In this document: positions 53,055-63,110 of the stretch, piece after piece
Layout: every line of letters starts with the position of its first letter
How positions within the stretch are numbered: the first letter of the stretch is position 1
Assembly (NCBI GenBank): GCA_022729995.1
Contig: DZBS01000001.1
Span: 46,930 to 110,039 of the forward strand
Length of the DNA stretch: 63,110 nt
Direction: 5' to 3'
Source of the DNA: Draconibacterium orientale
Lineage (GTDB): Bacteria > Bacteroidota > Bacteroidia > Bacteroidales > JAADGE01
Made by a program: the position numbers and the translations under genes
Notes under the pieces: model-generated
What the model was told of the DNA's origin: nothing
Seen by the model: the letters and a program-made list of their open reading frames with translations, nothing else
The model's database searches: none

Positions 53055-54944
53055 TTATTCAACTACAATTTTTTCGGTAATATTTATATTTTCGTTTGAA
53101 ATTCTTATAAAATAAACACCATTTGCAAAATAAGAAGTATTAAATTCTTCAGTTTGTTTTGTTGAATTGATATTTAAAATTTCTTTTCCTGTAACATTGG
53201 TAATTTTGATATTTACGAATGAATTATTTGCAGGTAATTCAATTTTAAAATAATCTTTAGCAGGGTTTGGGAAAATTTTTACTGAATTTGAAATTTCTTT
53301 AATTTGAGCAGCACCAAATCCTAAAACTGCATTTTCGCTTTTAATGCTTCCGTAAAATTCATCGGTAACAATACAAGAATAAATTCCTTGGTCAGTTTCT
53401 GAAACTCCTGTTATTGTGAGCGTATTTGTAGTAACTCCGGAATTAAATTTTATTAAATCGTCGTATAAATCAACACCGTTTTTTTGCCATCTGTAAGTTA
53501 AAGTTCCTTCGCCAACAGCTTCAACAGTAAAAGTTTGATCTGTTCCTGCGATAATACTATATAAGCTTTCGGGTTGAGTTGTAATGTTCAAAATAGTTGC
53601 ATGCCAAGGTTCGTAACCGTTAATTGCATCATACGCTTCAAAAAATAAATCGTTTCCCGAAAGACAAAATTCTTGAGGATATGAATCAGATGTGCCTGCA
53701 TTTAAGTCTTTTACAAGAACAGTTCCTCTTTCGGTTCCGTCAGTTCTCCAGAATTCACTTCCGTAATCGAGTGAATATGCACTAAAAAATAATTTATCTT
53801 TTATTATGATAAATCCCCAAGGAGATGAACTGCTTGAACCGGAATATATATCTTTTAACATGTATGTTCCTTCAGAGGTTCCGTCGGAAACCCAAAGTTC
53901 GGTTCCGTTAATGCCGTCATTGGCTTGGAAATAAAGTTTATCGCCAAATATAATGAAATCCTCAAGTCCTGACCCTGAACTGCCTTCATAAATATCTTTA
54001 ATCATAACGGTTCCTTGCTCGGTGCCGTCAGTTTTCCACAATTCTTTTCCAAAATTTGCACCTGCATCACCTGCTTTGAAATACATTGTCCAAACATTTG
54101 GAGTATAATATGAAGGACCGGAATTGTCTGTTCCTGCAGCAATATTTTTAAGAATGTGAGTTCCGTCAGCGGTTCCGTCTGTAATCCATGTTTCAATTCC
54201 GTAATCGTCGGATTCTGATGTAAAAACTAATTTATCTCCCCAAACGGTAAATTTGGGTTCGCTCGGTTCGCCGTTATCTGATGCTGAAATATCTTTAAGC
54301 ATAACAGTTCCTTCGAGCGTTCCGTCTGTAACCCAAGGTTCAAGACCGGTTGTTCCGTCGTTAGCAACAAAATATACTTTTCCGTTGAAAAGTGTTGTTC
54401 CGGCAATTAGTGAACCAATATCCGTAGGATTAATTTCTTTCAATAATGCAGTTCCGTCAGTAGTTCCGTTACTAACCCATAATTCATGGTTTCCGTTTGT
54501 TACTCCGTCAACTCCGCCGTTTTGAGCACGAAATACGAATTTTCCGTTTACCTCTTTAAAATAAGCTGTTGCCGAACTATTTCCGGGATAAATTTCTTTT
54601 ACTAAAACAGTTCCGTCTGTTGTTCCGTCGCTTTTCCAAAGTTGGCGGTCTAAAACTCCGTCATCGCCGTTGAAATATATCATATCGTTGAATATGATGT
54701 ATCCAATTTCGTCTGATGCAAAATCAACTTCTTTAACCATTACAGTTCCGTCTGTTGTTCCGTCTGTTGACCAAAATTGGTTATTTGCTCCAAAAAAAAC
54801 CTTTCCTTTATATTCAAAAAATACGGAAGGATAGCTGCTTCCTGTTCCGGGAATAATATCTTTTAATAGAGTTTGTGAATATCCTGCATTGGAAATTAAT
54901 ATTAATGCCAAGGCTAAAATAAATTTTTTGTAGATTCTTTTCAT
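53055..54944 (-). CDS. ELWxxDGT-repeat protein with an Ig-like domain and a T9SS C-terminal sorting domain
   Basis: About 9 repeats of (E)LW.(S/T)DGT..GT.(L/M)(V/L)KDI. An Ig-like segment (GIYSCIVTD) follows, and the C-terminus KIFPNPAKDYFKIEL...NGVYFIRI is typical of Por/T9SS tails. Confidence 0.85.
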   Translation of the reverse strand: MKRIYKKFILALALILISNAGYSQTLLKDIIPGTGSSYPSVFFEYKGKVFFGANNQFWSTDGTTDGTVMVKEVDFASDEIGYIIFNDMIYFNGDDGVLDRQLWKSDGTTDGTVLVKEIYPGNSSATAYFKEVNGKFVFRAQNGGVDGVTNGNHELWVSNGTTDGTALLKEINPTDIGSLIAGTTLFNGKVYFVANDGTTGLEPWVTDGTLEGTVMLKDISASDNGEPSEPKFTVWGDKLVFTSESDDYGIETWITDGTADGTHILKNIAAGTDNSGPSYYTPNVWTMYFKAGDAGANFGKELWKTDGTEQGTVMIKDIYEGSSGSGLEDFIIFGDKLYFQANDGINGTELWVSDGTSEGTYMLKDIYSGSSSSSPWGFIIIKDKLFFSAYSLDYGSEFWRTDGTERGTVLVKDLNAGTSDSYPQEFCLSGNDLFFEAYDAINGYEPWHATILNITTQPESLYSIIAGTDQTFTVEAVGEGTLTYRWQKNGVDLYDDLIKFNSGVTTNTLTITGVSETDQGIYSCIVTDEFYGSIKSENAVLGFGAAQIKEISNSVKIFPNPAKDYFKIELPANNSFVNIKITNVTGKEILNINSTKQTEEFNTSYFANGVYFIRISNENINITEKIVVE

Positions 54945-60346: not shown

Positions 60347-60772
60347 TTAAAATCTTTTTTTTACCGAAAATGCAAATGTTTTTTTTATTTTATCTCTTTT
60401 CATATATAAGATTAAATAATAAGGAATTAATATTCCTAAAGAAATTAAACCCGAAATTAATTCATTTTTTGTGATTGAAATTAATGTTATAAGCGTAAAA
60501 ATTACAAATAAGAAGGGCAATAAATATCCTAATAATAATGCTCTAAAACCCAATGATTGGCTATAAAAAACATCTACTTCTTCATTAATAATATAATCCG
60601 AGTAGTTTTCGGTATTGATTTCTATAATTTTTTCTTCGACATCGGAAATATTGCATGCACTTTTTAGAGTGCAAGATAAACAAGCAGCTTTTGAAATAAT
60701 GCTGACAAAAATCCTGTTTTCATGTATTTCTTTTATAAATCCTTGATGTTCTATTTGATTTGACTCATACAT
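60347..60772 (-). CDS. RseC/MucC (SoxR-reducing system) family protein, first gene of the rnf operon
   Basis: 141 aa with an N-terminal Cys motif (AACLSCTLKSAC) followed by two TM helices. Its position upstream of rnfB is as in other Bacteroidales. Confidence 0.7.
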   Translation of the reverse strand: MYESNQIEHQGFIKEIHENRIFVSIISKAACLSCTLKSACNISDVEEKIIEINTENYSDYIINEEVDVFYSQSLGFRALLLGYLLPFLFVIFTLITLISITKNELISGLISLGILIPYYLILYMKRDKIKKTFAFSVKKRF

Positions 60773-60948
60773 TGGTCGGTAATTTTGAGATGCAAATTAA
60801 GTTAATGCGAATTATATTATTTATGTTTTTAAGCAGTTAAAACTTATTTGTATTGATTTTAAATAGATTTTTTTTTAATACAAACCAATTTGCAAATATT
60901 TTTTTTAACTAAATTTGTAATTATAATGTTAAACACATTCATAATACT

Positions 60949-61485
60949 ATGATAAGAAAAGAGATAATAATTCCGGTTGCAATAATATTGCTTACTGTAA
61001 TTTTTGCATCTGTTTCTGCTTTTGTTTTTTTTTCAAAAGGGAAATCGAAGTTTTGGGTTTCACAAAAAATGAAAATAGGAGCAGTTCTGTTAACATTATG
61101 CGTAATAACAGTTCAACCTTCGTGTAAACAGCAAGTTACTTGCTATGATGTTGCAAGAACAAATAATTTTGTTGTAGAAACAGATTCCGCAGGAAAAATA
61201 AATTTGGATATTTCTGAAAACAATAAAATTACCGGAAAGATTTATTTAAGAGATGTTTCCAATTATTCTTTTAAAATTGCAAACACAGGTTCAATCGAAA
61301 AAAATTTATTTAAAGGTGCTGTAATGCCTTCCGACGGTGTTTTTAATTCTACTCAAGAAAACTTTTTCGTTGAAATTGATAAATCAATAAAACCGGGTGA
61401 ATACAGTATTTCATTTTTTCCTGTAAGTATTGAATTACAAGGAGAATACGGCAATTGGGATTCATTTATTTTGAATATTAAATAA
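60949..61485 (+). CDS. 178-aa membrane-anchored/lipoprotein-like protein, tandem paralogue 1 (radical-SAM-associated)
   Basis: N-terminal TM helix, then a second signal-like segment that ends in VQPSC. A conserved VTCYD follows, and the rest is a beta-rich domain. Confidence 0.65.
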   Translation: MIRKEIIIPVAIILLTVIFASVSAFVFFSKGKSKFWVSQKMKIGAVLLTLCVITVQPSCKQQVTCYDVARTNNFVVETDSAGKINLDISENNKITGKIYLRDVSNYSFKIANTGSIEKNLFKGAVMPSDGVFNSTQENFFVEIDKSIKPGEYSISFFPVSIELQGEYGNWDSFILNIK

Positions 61486-61641
61486 ACAGTAGAAATTGTA
61501 TTTATTAAATTGAATAGCTTTTTTCCAAAAATTTAAAATTAAAATTAAAATTAAAATAATTTTTTACTTACAATCGTTTATTAAAAAAGATATATTTGAA
61601 TTAAATTTGGAAAATAAACTTTAGTAACAAAATTAAAATTA

Positions 61642-62178
61642 ATGATAAGAAAAGAAATATTAATTCCTGTTGCAATTATTTCGCTTACAGTTGTTTTTGC
61701 GTCAGTTTCCGTTTTTGTATTTTTCTCAAAAGGAAAATCAAAATTTTGGATTTCTAAAAAAATAAAAATCGGTGCGGTGTTGTTAACTTTAAGTGCAATT
61801 AGTGTTCAACCTTCTTGCCGACCTTTTGTTACTTGTTATGATCCTGTAATGCCCAATCAATTTGTGTTGGATAACGACTCGTTAAATAATATTAACCTTG
61901 ATATTTCCGAAACCAATAAATTAACCGGAATTATTTATAGCAGAGAAGGAACCGAATTTTCTTATAACATTTCCGATACAAGTTCAACTGCAAATGTATT
62001 GTTTAAAGGTGAAGTTTTCCCGACCGACGGAGTTTTTGATTCTTCGCAAGAAAACTTCTTTGTTGAAATTGACACTTCAATTAATCCGGGTCAATATCGA
62101 ATTTCTTTTTTCAATAAAAGTGTTGAACTTCAAGATGAATACAGCGGTTGGGGAATTTATCTCTTGAATATTAAATAA
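61642..62178 (+). CDS. 178-aa membrane-anchored/lipoprotein-like protein, tandem paralogue 2
   Basis: Same length as paralogue 1. The first 67 residues are about 80% identical (13 differences counted), and overall identity is about 55-60% by eye. Confidence 0.65.
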   Translation: MIRKEILIPVAIISLTVVFASVSVFVFFSKGKSKFWISKKIKIGAVLLTLSAISVQPSCRPFVTCYDPVMPNQFVLDNDSLNNINLDISETNKLTGIIYSREGTEFSYNISDTSSTANVLFKGEVFPTDGVFDSSQENFFVEIDTSINPGQYRISFFNKSVELQDEYSGWGIYLLNIK

Positions 62179-62179
62179 A

Positions 62180-63110
62180 TTGAAAAAGTTAAAACTACCT
62201 CATATTTCAATCGAGCTTACTTCTGTATGTAATTTAAACTGCAGATATTGCTACAATTATTGGAAATCACCTTTTTATCAAGAAAAAAAAGTTTTTAATT
62301 CTTATAAAAAAGCTAAATCAACCCTAAAACAACTTTTTAAAATTGCCGACGTTGAATTTGTTACTTTTACAGGCGGCGAACCGTTTCTTTCCGAGCGATT
62401 TGCCGAAATTGTTTTGTTAACTCGTCTTAAAAATAAATCGGTTACAATTATTACAAACGGAAATTCCGCATCAAATGCCGATTACGATTTAATGAAAAAA
62501 TTTGGAGTCGGATTGTTTGAATTGCCTTTGCATTCCGCCAAGCCTGAAATCCACGATTTTCTTACAGAAATTAATGGTTCGTGGCAAAAATCGCTTAATT
62601 CTATAAAATATTTATTGTCGATAAATGTTGATGTTGTTGCAGTTATTGTTATTACAAAACAAAATTATAGAGAAATTGGAGAAACTTTAAAATTTATTAA
62701 ATCGTTGGGAATTAATCGTATAATGTTAAATCGTTTTAATATCGGAGGAAAAGGAATTTCTGAAAATGATAATTTGGAATTAACAAAAGAAGAAATTAAT
62801 TTTTGTTTTAAAGAAGCTTCAAAAATAGGGAAGGAGTTGAAACTTTCGTTAAGTTCAAATGTTTGCAGTCCTTTGTGTATCGTAAATCCGAAGGAATATA
62901 CAAATATATATTTTACAAAATGCTCGCCCGAAGTTGAAAAACGACCTTTAACAATTGATATTGACGGGAATTTACGATTTTGCAACCATTCTCCTACAGT
63001 TTTGGGAAATATTTTTACCGATAAATTGAATGAAATGTTTGAATCGGAAAATGCAAAACAATGGAAAAATGTTGTTCCGGATTATTGCAGTTCTTGCGAT
63101 TTGTTTTCAA
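62180..63110 (+). CDS. Radical SAM/SPASM-domain protein (3' end truncated by the window edge)
   Basis: Not in the ORF track. The frame is open from TTG 62180 to the window end (LKKLKLPHISIELTSVCNLNCRYCYNYW...). Motifs are CX3CX2C at residues 17-24, TFTGGEPFL, and C-terminal Cys motifs (CSPLC, KCSP, DGNLRFCNHSP, DYCSSCD) typical of a SPASM/twitch auxiliary cluster domain. Confidence 0.85.
   Translation, partial: MKKLKLPHISIELTSVCNLNCRYCYNYWKSPFYQEKKVFNSYKKAKSTLKQLFKIADVEFVTFTGGEPFLSERFAEIVLLTRLKNKSVTIITNGNSASNADYDLMKKFGVGLFELPLHSAKPEIHDFLTEINGSWQKSLNSIKYLLSINVDVVAVIVITKQNYREIGETLKFIKSLGINRIMLNRFNIGGKGISENDNLELTKEEINFCFKEASKIGKELKLSLSSNVCSPLCIVNPKEYTNIYFTKCSPEVEKRPLTIDIDGNLRFCNHSPTVLGNIFTDKLNEMFESENAKQWKNVVPDYCSSCDLFS

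Follow-up and report, generated by a model that had tools for sequence, protein, structure and literature searches.

A radical SAM/SPASM enzyme gene and tandem genes for lipoprotein-like Cys-Tyr-motif proteins as a candidate maturase-substrate cassette in Bacteroidota

Described systems closest to the locus

To our knowledge, radical SAM/SPASM enzymes are known mostly for peptide natural products and cofactors, and very few cases are documented in which their targets are full-size exported proteins, for example sulfatases and QhpC. Maturation of Ser-type sulfatases by the cytosolic AtsB needs the signal peptide of the substrate. QhpD is a radical SAM/SPASM enzyme that crosslinks Cys residues of the small protein QhpC in the cytoplasm; QhpC, which carries Cys-Asp/Glu thioethers and is served by a dedicated protease and exporter, then works in the periplasm. 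SuiB is a C-C crosslinking RiPP enzyme. A further pair, TIGR04133 (rSAM_w_lipo) and TIGR04134 (lipo_with_rSAM), occurs in Bacteroidetes and consists of a radical SAM/SPASM gene beside a small putative lipoprotein, its function being uncharacterised. One paper uses the number TIGR04134 for the type B T9SS C-terminal domain; NCBIfam lists the lipoprotein family there.

The locus described here closes the stretch of Draconibacterium orientale DNA that we analysed (63,110 nt, hereafter the window) and consists of two tandem genes for small lipoprotein-like proteins followed by a radical SAM/SPASM enzyme gene, a layout like that of the TIGRFAMs pair. The enzyme resembles the anSME/AtsB/ChuR group in being a single-polypeptide radical SAM/SPASM protein (about 340-370 aa) with no RRE, in having an anSME structure (4k39) as its best Foldseek match and in offering eight Cys for two auxiliary clusters. 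The predicted target Cys likewise belongs to a short motif close to the N-terminus in a protein with a signal peptide, and would be modified in the cytoplasm before export. However, the enzyme is only 17% identical to anSME in sequence, misses the cut-off of TIGR03942, lacks the last canonical SPASM Cys and has two extra Cys upstream. The motif also differs, being [VI]-[TSM]-C-Y-[DE] in the cassette and C/S-x-P/A-x-R in sulfatases, and whereas anSME acts on sulfatases, the presumed substrates in the cassette are small, lipoprotein-like and variable in their domains, and are encoded in tandem immediately upstream of the enzyme. The likeness to QhpD-QhpC is that the target would be a small protein and not a released peptide; unlike that system, the cassette lacks accessory genes of this kind, and Tyr is the invariant partner residue. 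SuiB, SkfB and PqqE have the core and SPASM fold in common with the cassette enzyme (SkfB at E = 5.8e-18, PqqE aligned over residues 10-334) but use an RRE or PqqD element, which the cassette enzyme is without. The presumed substrates also differ from those of RiPP maturases in bearing signal-peptide and lipobox features and folded domains.

The three genes in the window and the enzyme

Paralogue 1 (60949..61485, plus strand) and paralogue 2 (61642..62178, plus strand) are ORFs that each encode a 178-aa Cys-Tyr-motif lipoprotein-like protein of the same architecture. The two proteins are identical at 117/178 positions (66%) in a gap-free alignment (E = 2e-75). Their N-terminal 57 aa are 82% identical, and the codon differences there (22 synonymous, 10 non-synonymous) indicate purifying selection. 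The lipobox-like Cys59 (VQPS-C in paralogue 1) is encoded at 61123..61125 in paralogue 1 and at 61816..61818 in paralogue 2, and the invariant Cys65-Tyr66 (VTCYD), the predicted modification site, at 61141..61146 and 61834..61839, respectively, all on the plus strand; the peptide around this site in paralogue 2 reads ...SCRPFVTCYDPVMPNQF.... The stop codon of paralogue 2 (TAA, 62176-62178) is followed by one base and then by TTG 62180, which opens the enzyme frame (62180..63110, plus strand, with 310 of 340 codons inside the window). The sequence-only reading of this DNA had described the paralogue pair, the VQPSC and VTCYD motifs in both proteins and a frame missing from the ORF list that runs from TTG 62180 to the window end, and all of these were recovered at the coordinates given here. 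A search for an exact 44-mer had no match among species-representative genomes, and the SerRS from the same contig shares no more than 69% identity with Bacteroidales MAGs.

A possible Bacteroidetes-type -7 promoter element, TAAATTTG, is located at 60910..60917 (plus strand), 31 nt upstream of paralogue 1, and paralogue 2 has an equivalent element 32 nt upstream, at 61602-61609. The element is not enriched in the window (20 matches vs 21.8 expected) and is weak evidence for a promoter. A sigma-70 promoter and terminator scan was likewise uninformative, giving 10 promoter-like sites vs 9.2 expected and no terminators. Divergent from the cassette, as had been noted from the sequence, is an rnf operon, which starts with an RseC/MucC-like gene (60347..60772, minus strand). 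The further suggestion that this neighbourhood might be meaningful was dropped, since the adjacency is not conserved: a Rnf, RseC or LysE homologue was found in 0 of the 82 related loci.

In order to extend the enzyme past the window end, we took its full-length sequence from a near-identical contig (L001:10264-11286, 99.8% identical), which gives a protein of 340 aa encoded by the last gene of the cassette. The TTG start aligns with the Met of orthologues. The protein carries the CX3CX2C motif as CNLNCRYC (C17, C21 and C24 in residues 17-24; 62228-62251, plus strand, from the translation) and GGEPFL. It matches Pfam Radical_SAM (PF04055) at 9e-26 (91 bits vs a cut-off of 29.5) and Pfam SPASM (PF13186) at 3.4e-7 (30.0-30.9 bits vs 21.5), both above threshold, which supports the assignment of the unlisted gene to the radical SAM/SPASM enzymes.

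The canonical SPASM pattern (PF13186/TIGR04085) has seven Cys, CX9-15GX4C ... CX2CX5CX3C ... C, for two auxiliary 4Fe-4S clusters. The enzyme holds six of the seven, as CX14GX4C and CX2CX5CX3C with no Cys afterwards, and has two extra Cys upstream of the pattern (C229 and C233). Cys229 to Cys306 are encoded at 62864-63097 (plus strand), and Cys312 and Cys316 lie past the window end. Across 68 orthologues, all eight of these C-terminal Cys show little or no variation. Thus the seven-Cys pattern expected by the sequence-only reading is absent in its strict form, while the domain does pass the Pfam threshold. Eight Cys could serve two auxiliary clusters; full ligation of both is an assumption on our part.

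The AlphaFold2 model of the enzyme is confident (pLDDT 95.2) and matches radical SAM structures in Foldseek, among them anSMEcpe with bound substrate peptide (4k39; E = 1.2e-14, TM 0.70) and SuiB (TM 0.74). Its first strand begins at residue 4 and its cluster motif at residue 17, which leaves no space for an RRE or PqqD domain; a Pfam match to PqqD is also absent, and the enzyme does not classify as an RRE-dependent RiPP maturase. The enzyme class and fold are established. Its family is another matter: neither the enzyme nor the small proteins reach any specific NCBIfam cut-off, and the enzyme scores far below the cut-off of every family there, the best match being GeoRSP (TIGR04303) with 89.8 bits vs 400. 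A reading as a prokaryotic viperin in defence was considered and rejected. The similarity is confined to the generic core (64 bits to pVip in PADLOC; 55.6 bits to NF038283 vs a cut-off of 180), the enzyme has a SPASM domain, and the small proteins have no match.

Small proteins and gene pairing across genomes

In each window paralogue, a Lys-rich turn connects helix 1 (aa 3-28) to an h-region (aa 34-54). The lipobox-like Cys59 comes next, then a linker and the invariant Cys65-Tyr66, and aa 73-177 form an Ig-like beta sandwich. This layout was obtained from the AlphaFold2 model of paralogue 2 (mean pLDDT 93.4), which shows a helical hairpin (3-28 and 34-54), a lower-confidence linker and an eight-strand beta domain, and was transferred to paralogue 1, which matches the family HMM at 2.6e-55. 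Foldseek of the beta domain of paralogue 2 returned only generic Ig-like folds, the best being TapA (E = 2e-4, TM 0.33), so no function can be deduced from the fold.

The sequence-only reading had taken the beta-rich domain to be the conserved shared feature. It marks a subfamily only. What is common to the family is the N-terminal module, which comprises a helix, a Lys-rich turn, a signal-peptide-like segment, usually a lipobox-like Cys, and [VI]-[TSM]-C-Y-[DE]; F19, K40 and G44 are conserved in at least 98% of the representatives of 50% identity clusters. The C-terminal part varies from the Ig-like sandwich of the window proteins to TonB_C, a periplasmic domain or CarboxypepD_reg in relatives, or is missing, and some members have just 67-125 aa with one to three CY motifs and no folded domain. 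The N-terminal module has nothing above threshold in Pfam or NCBIfam, where relatives match only at their C-terminal TonB_C or CarboxypepD_reg. Current annotation names the proteins by these C-terminal domains, as 'energy transducer TonB' or 'carboxypeptidase-like regulatory domain protein', or as 'hypothetical protein'.

The Cys-Tyr motif is both invariant and repeated. Among representatives clustered at 50% identity, the Cys is present in 103/104 and the Tyr in 104/104. Of the 148 members derived from the related loci, 147 have at least one CY motif (0.13 expected per protein) and 65 hold two to seven, the later copies keeping the flanks of the first; nearly half of all Cys in these members (243/498) directly precede Tyr. 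The lipobox-like Cys is present in 85 of the 104 representatives and missing in 19. Residue -1 of this earlier Cys is S, G or A in 205 of 214 family members (96%), which supports the description of the small proteins as lipoprotein-like. As would suit SPase II substrates, the n-region is rich in Lys, the h-region spans about 13 residues and a Cys stands at +1; on the other hand, -3 is Gln in the window proteins and an extra helix precedes the signal, so that they are only putative lipoproteins.

In order to evaluate co-occurrence of the genes across genomes, which had been set beforehand as the test that could refute the pairing, we collected 82 related loci with an alignment-based search and located arrays by HMM on their six-frame ORFs; 74 had enough upstream DNA for the pairing count. 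A single-sequence word-index search with paralogue 2 had given just five relatives, and the impression of a tiny family that it left was an artefact of sensitivity: with a profile search the family grew to 557 clusters at 50% identity. One to five same-strand relatives of the small proteins adjoin the enzyme in at least 70 of the 74 loci. By the script criteria, 66/74 have an upstream same-strand array of one to five copies. Inspection beyond these criteria added a directly abutting copy in L079 and a copy about 1.2 kb upstream of the enzyme in L081. The copy is downstream only in 4/74, and in two loci (L022 and L073) the enzyme has no adjacent small protein. The median gap from small protein to enzyme start is -2.5 nt. 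Pairing at this frequency far exceeds chance, and it makes the paralogues, which the sequence-only reading had offered as substrates or partners, the best candidates for substrates; the distant Cys-containing micro-ORFs that it had also named as conceivable substrates are unnecessary.

The pairing spans phyla. In Clostridia loci, where the enzyme is only 40% identical, tandem upstream ORFs carry PTCYSTAP, and these small proteins keep the motif while their remaining sequence is unrelated. No other gene is conserved: no further gene family occurs in more than 6 of the 82 loci, and thus there is no dedicated protease, transporter, ABC transporter or PqqD. The cassette was found in many anaerobic Bacteroidota, including cultivable hosts such as Dysgonomonas gadei ATCC BAA-286, where two TonB_C proteins are encoded upstream of the enzyme (locus L089). 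It is not represented in the Pfam and NCBIfam libraries that we searched, and full-text literature searches returned no description of the pairing.

Proposed maturation before export and alternative explanations

Our preferred reading, which we consider rather probable, is that the three genes are a maturase-substrate cassette complete in itself, whose enzyme modifies exported lipoprotein-type proteins before Sec export. The enzyme, cytoplasmic, lacking an RRE and anSME-like in layout, would act on the two 178-aa proteins prior to their export. Helix 1, the h-region and the Gly/Lys turn that contains the invariant Lys40 make up their N-terminal module, which would double as export signal and docking element, and the unfolded linker directly past the lipobox Cys would insert into the enzyme barrel. 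There, the 5'-deoxyadenosyl radical would take a hydrogen inside the [VI]-[TSM]-Cys-Tyr-[DE] motif, and the electron would pass to the pair of auxiliary clusters that the eight Cys could bind. The exported product would be cut at the lipobox, leaving some 3-13 residues between the lipid anchor and the modified residue, which would lie at the foot of the variable periplasmic domain. The invariance and repetition of the motif, and its place in proteins that so regularly adjoin the enzyme, suggest that the small proteins are the substrates and that Cys-Tyr is the probable site of a modification that would precede export. As to the chemistry, we would favour an intramolecular Cys-Tyr crosslink (-2 Da) since the Tyr is as invariant as the Cys, and would rank formylglycine (-18 Da), made from Cys by an anSME-like oxidation, next and another oxidation or crosslink last.

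Several observations count against this reading. The Cys-Tyr site is only about 10-20 residues past the h-region, so that a cytoplasmic enzyme could not reach it if insertion were co-translational. Helix 1 of the window proteins is hydrophobic enough for a true transmembrane helix, so the hairpin may be a stable, uncleaved anchor and not a leader. We also counted against it the 19/104 representatives that lack the lipobox Cys, the missing last SPASM Cys and the lone enzymes of L022 and L073. The weak sequence similarity to anSME and the equally good match to SuiB were counted against the anSME-like reading as well.

The genes could instead form a classical RiPP cluster, the small proteins being precursors with a leader and a Cys-Tyr core that is released as a small bioactive peptide. 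Tandem, fast-diverging genes of variable copy number immediately upstream of a SPASM maturase would be expected of such a cluster, as would a conserved N-terminus followed by a short repeated motif; the members of 67-125 aa without a folded domain fit it, and SuiB and SkfB rank near the top in the structural and sequence comparisons. However, the 82 loci revealed neither RRE nor PqqD, be it as a domain or as a gene, and a protease or ABC transporter was not conserved among them; the supposed leader is shaped like a signal peptide with a lipobox, and in most members folded periplasmic domains follow the motif (Ig-like sandwich at pLDDT 93, TonB_C, CarboxypepD_reg). We therefore regard release of a peptide as unlikely. 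A role of the small proteins as partners of the enzyme seems improbable to us too. They would then be membrane anchors or scaffolds that bring it to the membrane for another target (lipid, cofactor or protein), and the Cys-Tyr motif would serve the partner's own function, e.g. metal binding or a disulfide. The confidently predicted helical hairpin does hold the invariant F19, K40 and G44, the enzyme stands alone at two loci, and some SPASM/twitch enzymes use non-peptide substrates, BtrN and PqqE-unrelated families being among the matches. Yet one would not expect a scaffold to exist in one to five divergent copies with interchangeable C-terminal domains, or to carry as many as seven repeats of one seven-residue motif in its unstructured tails, and the motif is retained in Clostridia proteins that are otherwise unrelated in sequence.

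It is very improbable that the cassette is the catalogued TIGR04133/TIGR04134 pair, as the sequence-only reading had thought possible, or an anSME with a sulfatase-like target. General layout and phylum agree with the TIGRFAMs pair, and anSME is the top structural match. Against this, TIGR04133 gives 50.7 bits for the window fragment and 62.9 for the full-length Dysgonomonas orthologue vs a cut-off of 425, and the window paralogues have no TIGR04134 match at E <= 0.1 (cut-off 39.8 bits). A TIGR04134 scan over 40 diverse family members gave one match, in the distant member L088 (21.5 bits); it falls in a CarboxypepD_reg-like part outside the Cys-Tyr module and is under the cut-off. For anSME, TIGR03942 gives 55.5 bits vs 349, and the neighbouring proteins show C-Y-[DE]-P in place of the absent sulfatase motif. 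By these profile scores the claim of membership can be taken as refuted, and the cassette appears to be a family pair separate from TIGR04133/TIGR04134.

Returning to the maturase-substrate reading, we tentatively propose a novel modification on exported proteins, and not on released peptides, in the form of a Cys-Tyr crosslink or a Cys-derived aldehyde a few residues from the lipid anchor of a periplasmic lipoprotein family to which TonB-C-terminal-domain proteins of anaerobic Bacteroidota belong; the enzyme would recognise them by the signal peptide and the conserved pre-signal helix. The cassette is a new and well-delimited case, with a two-residue invariant site, no accessory genes and a presumed substrate family of 557 clusters. 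If the Cys-Tyr site is modified, this would add a new modification to those defined for the bacterial cell envelope, would explain many mis-described 'TonB' paralogues of gut and sediment Bacteroidota, and would open a new radical SAM reaction to study in a simple two-gene expression system.

The cassette and its surroundings

The two tandem 178-aa paralogues pointed out in the sequence-only reading are ORFs of the forward strand at 60949..61485 and 61642..62178, with 66% identity in an ungapped pairwise alignment (E = 2e-75). The unlisted radical SAM/SPASM gene described after them was likewise confirmed. A gap of one base separates the TAA of paralogue 2 (62176-62178) from TTG 62180, from which a frame stays open on the same strand to the window end; its translation carries CNLNCRYC and GGEPFL and matches the Pfam families Radical_SAM (9e-26) and SPASM (30.9 bits against a cut-off of 21.5). 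By sequence look-up, paralogue 2 is present on nine contigs, of which the longest, L001 (GCA_973840995.1), is 99.8% identical over the cassette region and provided the extension that the same reading had proposed. On this contig the full-length enzyme has 340 aa and is followed by a convergent LysE gene, and the cassette therefore consists of exactly three genes.

The octamer TAAATTTG, a putative -7 element, lies at 60910-60917 and 61602-61609, 31 and 32 nt before the start codons of the paralogues. It matches TAnnTTTG, the Bacteroidetes -7 promoter consensus, and its two copies suggest that each paralogue may have a separate promoter; the window as a whole has no excess of this motif (20 matches vs 21.8 expected). 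The 156-nt spacer between the paralogues is AT-rich, with 4-5 tandem AAAATT/TAAAAT hexamers at 61531-61558, and no terminator-like hairpin was found in it.

On the reverse strand, an RseC/MucC-family gene (60347-60772; PF04246, 4.2e-22) is the first gene of a divergent rnfBCDGEA-like operon. Such a gene order is unremarkable and has no link with the cassette elsewhere: Rnf, RseC and LysE homologues are absent from all 82 related loci. The adjacency, once considered as possibly meaningful, is incidental. Just past the operon, 53055-54944 of the reverse strand encodes a protein of 629 aa in which Ig-like domains are combined with Por_Secre_tail, a C-terminal domain for T9SS sorting; this supports a Bacteroidota origin of the window. 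The window is AT-rich (GC 30.8%) and belongs to an uncultured Bacteroidota lineage; the SerRS from the same contig has at most 69% identity to any species representative.

The enzyme and its pairing with small proteins

Enzyme orthologues numbered 487 at E <= 1e-10, the top 120 having 50-70% identity, and most belonged to MAGs of Bacteroidales or Bacteroidota. Across two orthologue alignments (38 and 68 sequences), the radical SAM motif cysteines C17, C21 and C24 and the C-terminal C229, C233, C248, C268, C303, C306, C312 and C316 were invariant or at least 90% conserved. Profile alignment to PqqE assigned C248...G263-x4-C268 to the CX9-15GX4C hairpin and C303-x2-C306-x5-C312-x3-C316 to a CX2CX5CX3C pattern in which C312 aligns with a non-Cys residue of PqqE; the canonical last SPASM Cys is missing, and C229 and C233 are extra relative to the canonical pattern. 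Thus eight C-terminal cysteines would be available for two putative clusters. In the AlphaFold2 model (pLDDT 95.2, pTM 0.92) the first strand begins at residue 4, leaving no space for an RRE domain, and the top Foldseek matches in the PDB were anSMEcpe with bound substrate peptide (4k39, E = 1.2e-14) and SuiB (TM 0.74), followed by SkfB, viperins, ChlB and PqqE. Viperin identity was rejected, PADLOC showing generic viperin-core similarity alone.

With one genome taken per species, an alignment-based scan gave 80 enzyme-encoding loci, including those of Dysgonomonas gadei, D. hofstadii, D. termitidis and Carboxylicivirga fragile, of MAGs assigned to Paludibacter, Prevotella and Draconibacterium, and of a few labelled Spirochaetes or other phyla. 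We iterated an HMM built from five relatives of the small proteins on six-frame ORFs of these loci and counted pairing among the 74 whose upstream sequence extends over 700 bp or more. The co-occurrence that the sequence-only reading had put forward as a check was found in other genomes: in 66 of the 74 a contiguous same-strand array of 1-5 members ends at the enzyme start (median gap -2.5 nt), and in four a member occurs downstream only. The remaining four scored as having none; on inspection, one (L079) has an abutting copy masked by an over-long ORF call and in another (L081) a copy lies some 1.2 kb before the enzyme. The last two (L022 and L073) have no ORF with the module in 600-2000 bp upstream in any forward frame, and their substrates may be elsewhere in the genome or lost. 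Of 82 loci, at most 6 share any other gene family. The pairing of the enzyme with the small proteins is real and self-contained.

Most telling are two Clostridia MAG loci. There the related enzyme is only 40% identical, and the one or two ORFs upstream of it (109-153 aa) begin with a hydrophobic segment, contain 'PTCYSTAP' in one or two copies and end in a membrane anchor. Therefore, the Cys-Tyr motif stays with the enzyme across phyla while the remaining protein changes. Also in two Clostridia MAGs (L010:873-1902 and L011:2477-3506), the reading frame of the related radical SAM gene is broken at an identical position, the GGEP motif, giving two ORFs that overlap; a frameshift common to both, pseudogene formation or faulty assembly could account for this.

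The Cys-Tyr module

A word-index search with the small protein returned five relatives only; a profile search reading every sequence returned 557 clusters (50% identity), of which 365 had E <= 1e-10. The beta-rich domain noted in the two paralogues is not what the family shares: the common element is the N-terminal 60-75 residues. These comprise helix 1 (hydrophobic and 23 residues long in the window proteins, amphipathic of the 'YNLLFRIFSYLSDKTNG' type in Dysgonomonas and Paludibacter), a Gly/Lys turn, an h-region 'K-x-K-[IL]-x-x-G-x-L-L-L', usually a Cys about 13 residues past the Gly, and, typically 3-13 residues further on, [VI]-[TSM]-C-Y-[DE]-[PV]-[AVI]-x-P. With S/G/A at position -1 in 205/214 members, the first Cys resembles that of a lipobox. 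Among 104 representatives K40 and Y66 are conserved in all, C65 in 103 (one Ser), G44 in 103, F19 in 102 and the lipobox-like C59 in 85. The Ser variant, P0268 (TSYD), has no other CY motif and is reminiscent of anSME's sulfatase substrates, which come in Cys and Ser types.

At least one CY is present in 147 of 148 non-redundant members (0.13 expected per protein from composition), and Tyr follows 243 of all their 498 Cys. Two to seven CY motifs occur in 65 of these members, and the later copies favour the same flanking residues as the first. The motif Tyr was never replaced by Phe, Trp or His, either among the 104 representatives or among the 147 locus-derived members with the motif. The AlphaFold2 model of paralogue 2 (pLDDT 93.4) consists of a helical hairpin (residues 3-28 and 34-54), a lower-confidence linker carrying C59 and C65-Y66, and an eight-strand beta sandwich with generic Ig-like fold matches only. 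Residues 1-57 of the window paralogues are 82% identical with 22 synonymous vs 10 non-synonymous codon differences, compared to 58% identity in the beta domain, which indicates purifying selection on the N-terminal module and not recent gene conversion.

The C-terminal parts vary from the Ig-like sandwich of the window proteins and fused repeats of it to TonB_C (12/40 sampled members), CarboxypepD_reg (3/40) and, in members of 67-125 aa, no domain at all. One module precedes two or three Ig-like domains in L029:775-1728, L047:67-1032, P0208 (445 aa) and P0257 (397 aa). A 392-aa Prevotella-MAG member (L088:3823-5001) joins the module to two CarboxypepD_reg/SusC-N-terminal-like domains and TonB_C; its residues 190-229, in a CarboxypepD_reg/PorE-like segment, give the sole, sub-threshold TIGR04134 match in the family. 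Public names ('energy transducer TonB', 'carboxypeptidase-like regulatory domain-containing protein', 'hypothetical protein') mirror C-terminal domains only.

Function and predicted chemistry

Membership in the TIGR04133/TIGR04134 pair, named in the sequence-only reading, or in anSME is very improbable, being refuted by the curated cut-offs. The enzyme passed no NCBIfam family model, scoring 89.8 bits for GeoRSP (TIGR04303; cut-off 400), 50.7 for TIGR04133 (425) and 55.5 for anSME (TIGR03942; 349); a Dysgonomonas orthologue likewise passed none, and the paralogues had no Pfam or NCBIfam match above threshold. The L088 match to TIGR04134 (21.5 bits) falls outside the module. A classical RiPP cluster, to which tandem variable precursors and very short members would be suited, is unlikely: folded cargo domains and the lipobox-like Cys speak against it, as does the lack of accessory genes. 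That the small proteins are a membrane scaffold or partner agrees with the confidently predicted hairpin; we consider this equally doubtful, as their copy number varies, the motif is repeated and the Clostridia proteins keep the motif while the rest changes.

An anSME-type maturase-substrate cassette fits the evidence better than a classical RiPP cluster, because the enzyme is a soluble protein that resembles anSME and has no RRE, because the putative substrates come with an export signal of their own and with folded cargo for the periplasm, and because no conserved protease, transporter or PqqD-like gene is nearby. A precedent exists in Klebsiella, where formylglycine formation by cytosolic AtsB needs the sulfatase signal peptide. 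In the proposed mechanism, the enzyme would bind the pre-export substrate with the conserved helix and turn as docking element, take a hydrogen atom from the Cys-Tyr motif in the unfolded linker and hand the electron on to its auxiliary clusters; the product would then be exported, and lipidated and cleaved where a lipobox is present. The small proteins are probably substrates modified at Cys-Tyr, and any one chemistry is at best tentative. A Cys-Tyr crosslink (-2 Da) is ranked first among the candidate outcomes because the Tyr is as invariant as the Cys (104/104) and has no Phe/Trp/His replacements, with Cys-to-formylglycine oxidation (-18 Da) a close second because of the anSME-like architecture, the eight Cys and the single Ser-for-Cys variant.

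Pfam (2025 copy) and NCBIfam 20.0 contain no model specific to the enzyme clade or the module, and a full-text literature search found no description of their pairing. A radical SAM/SPASM maturase encoded beside its protein or peptide substrate is a known kind of system; what is new here is the enzyme clade, the Cys-Tyr N-terminal module and the pairing of both.
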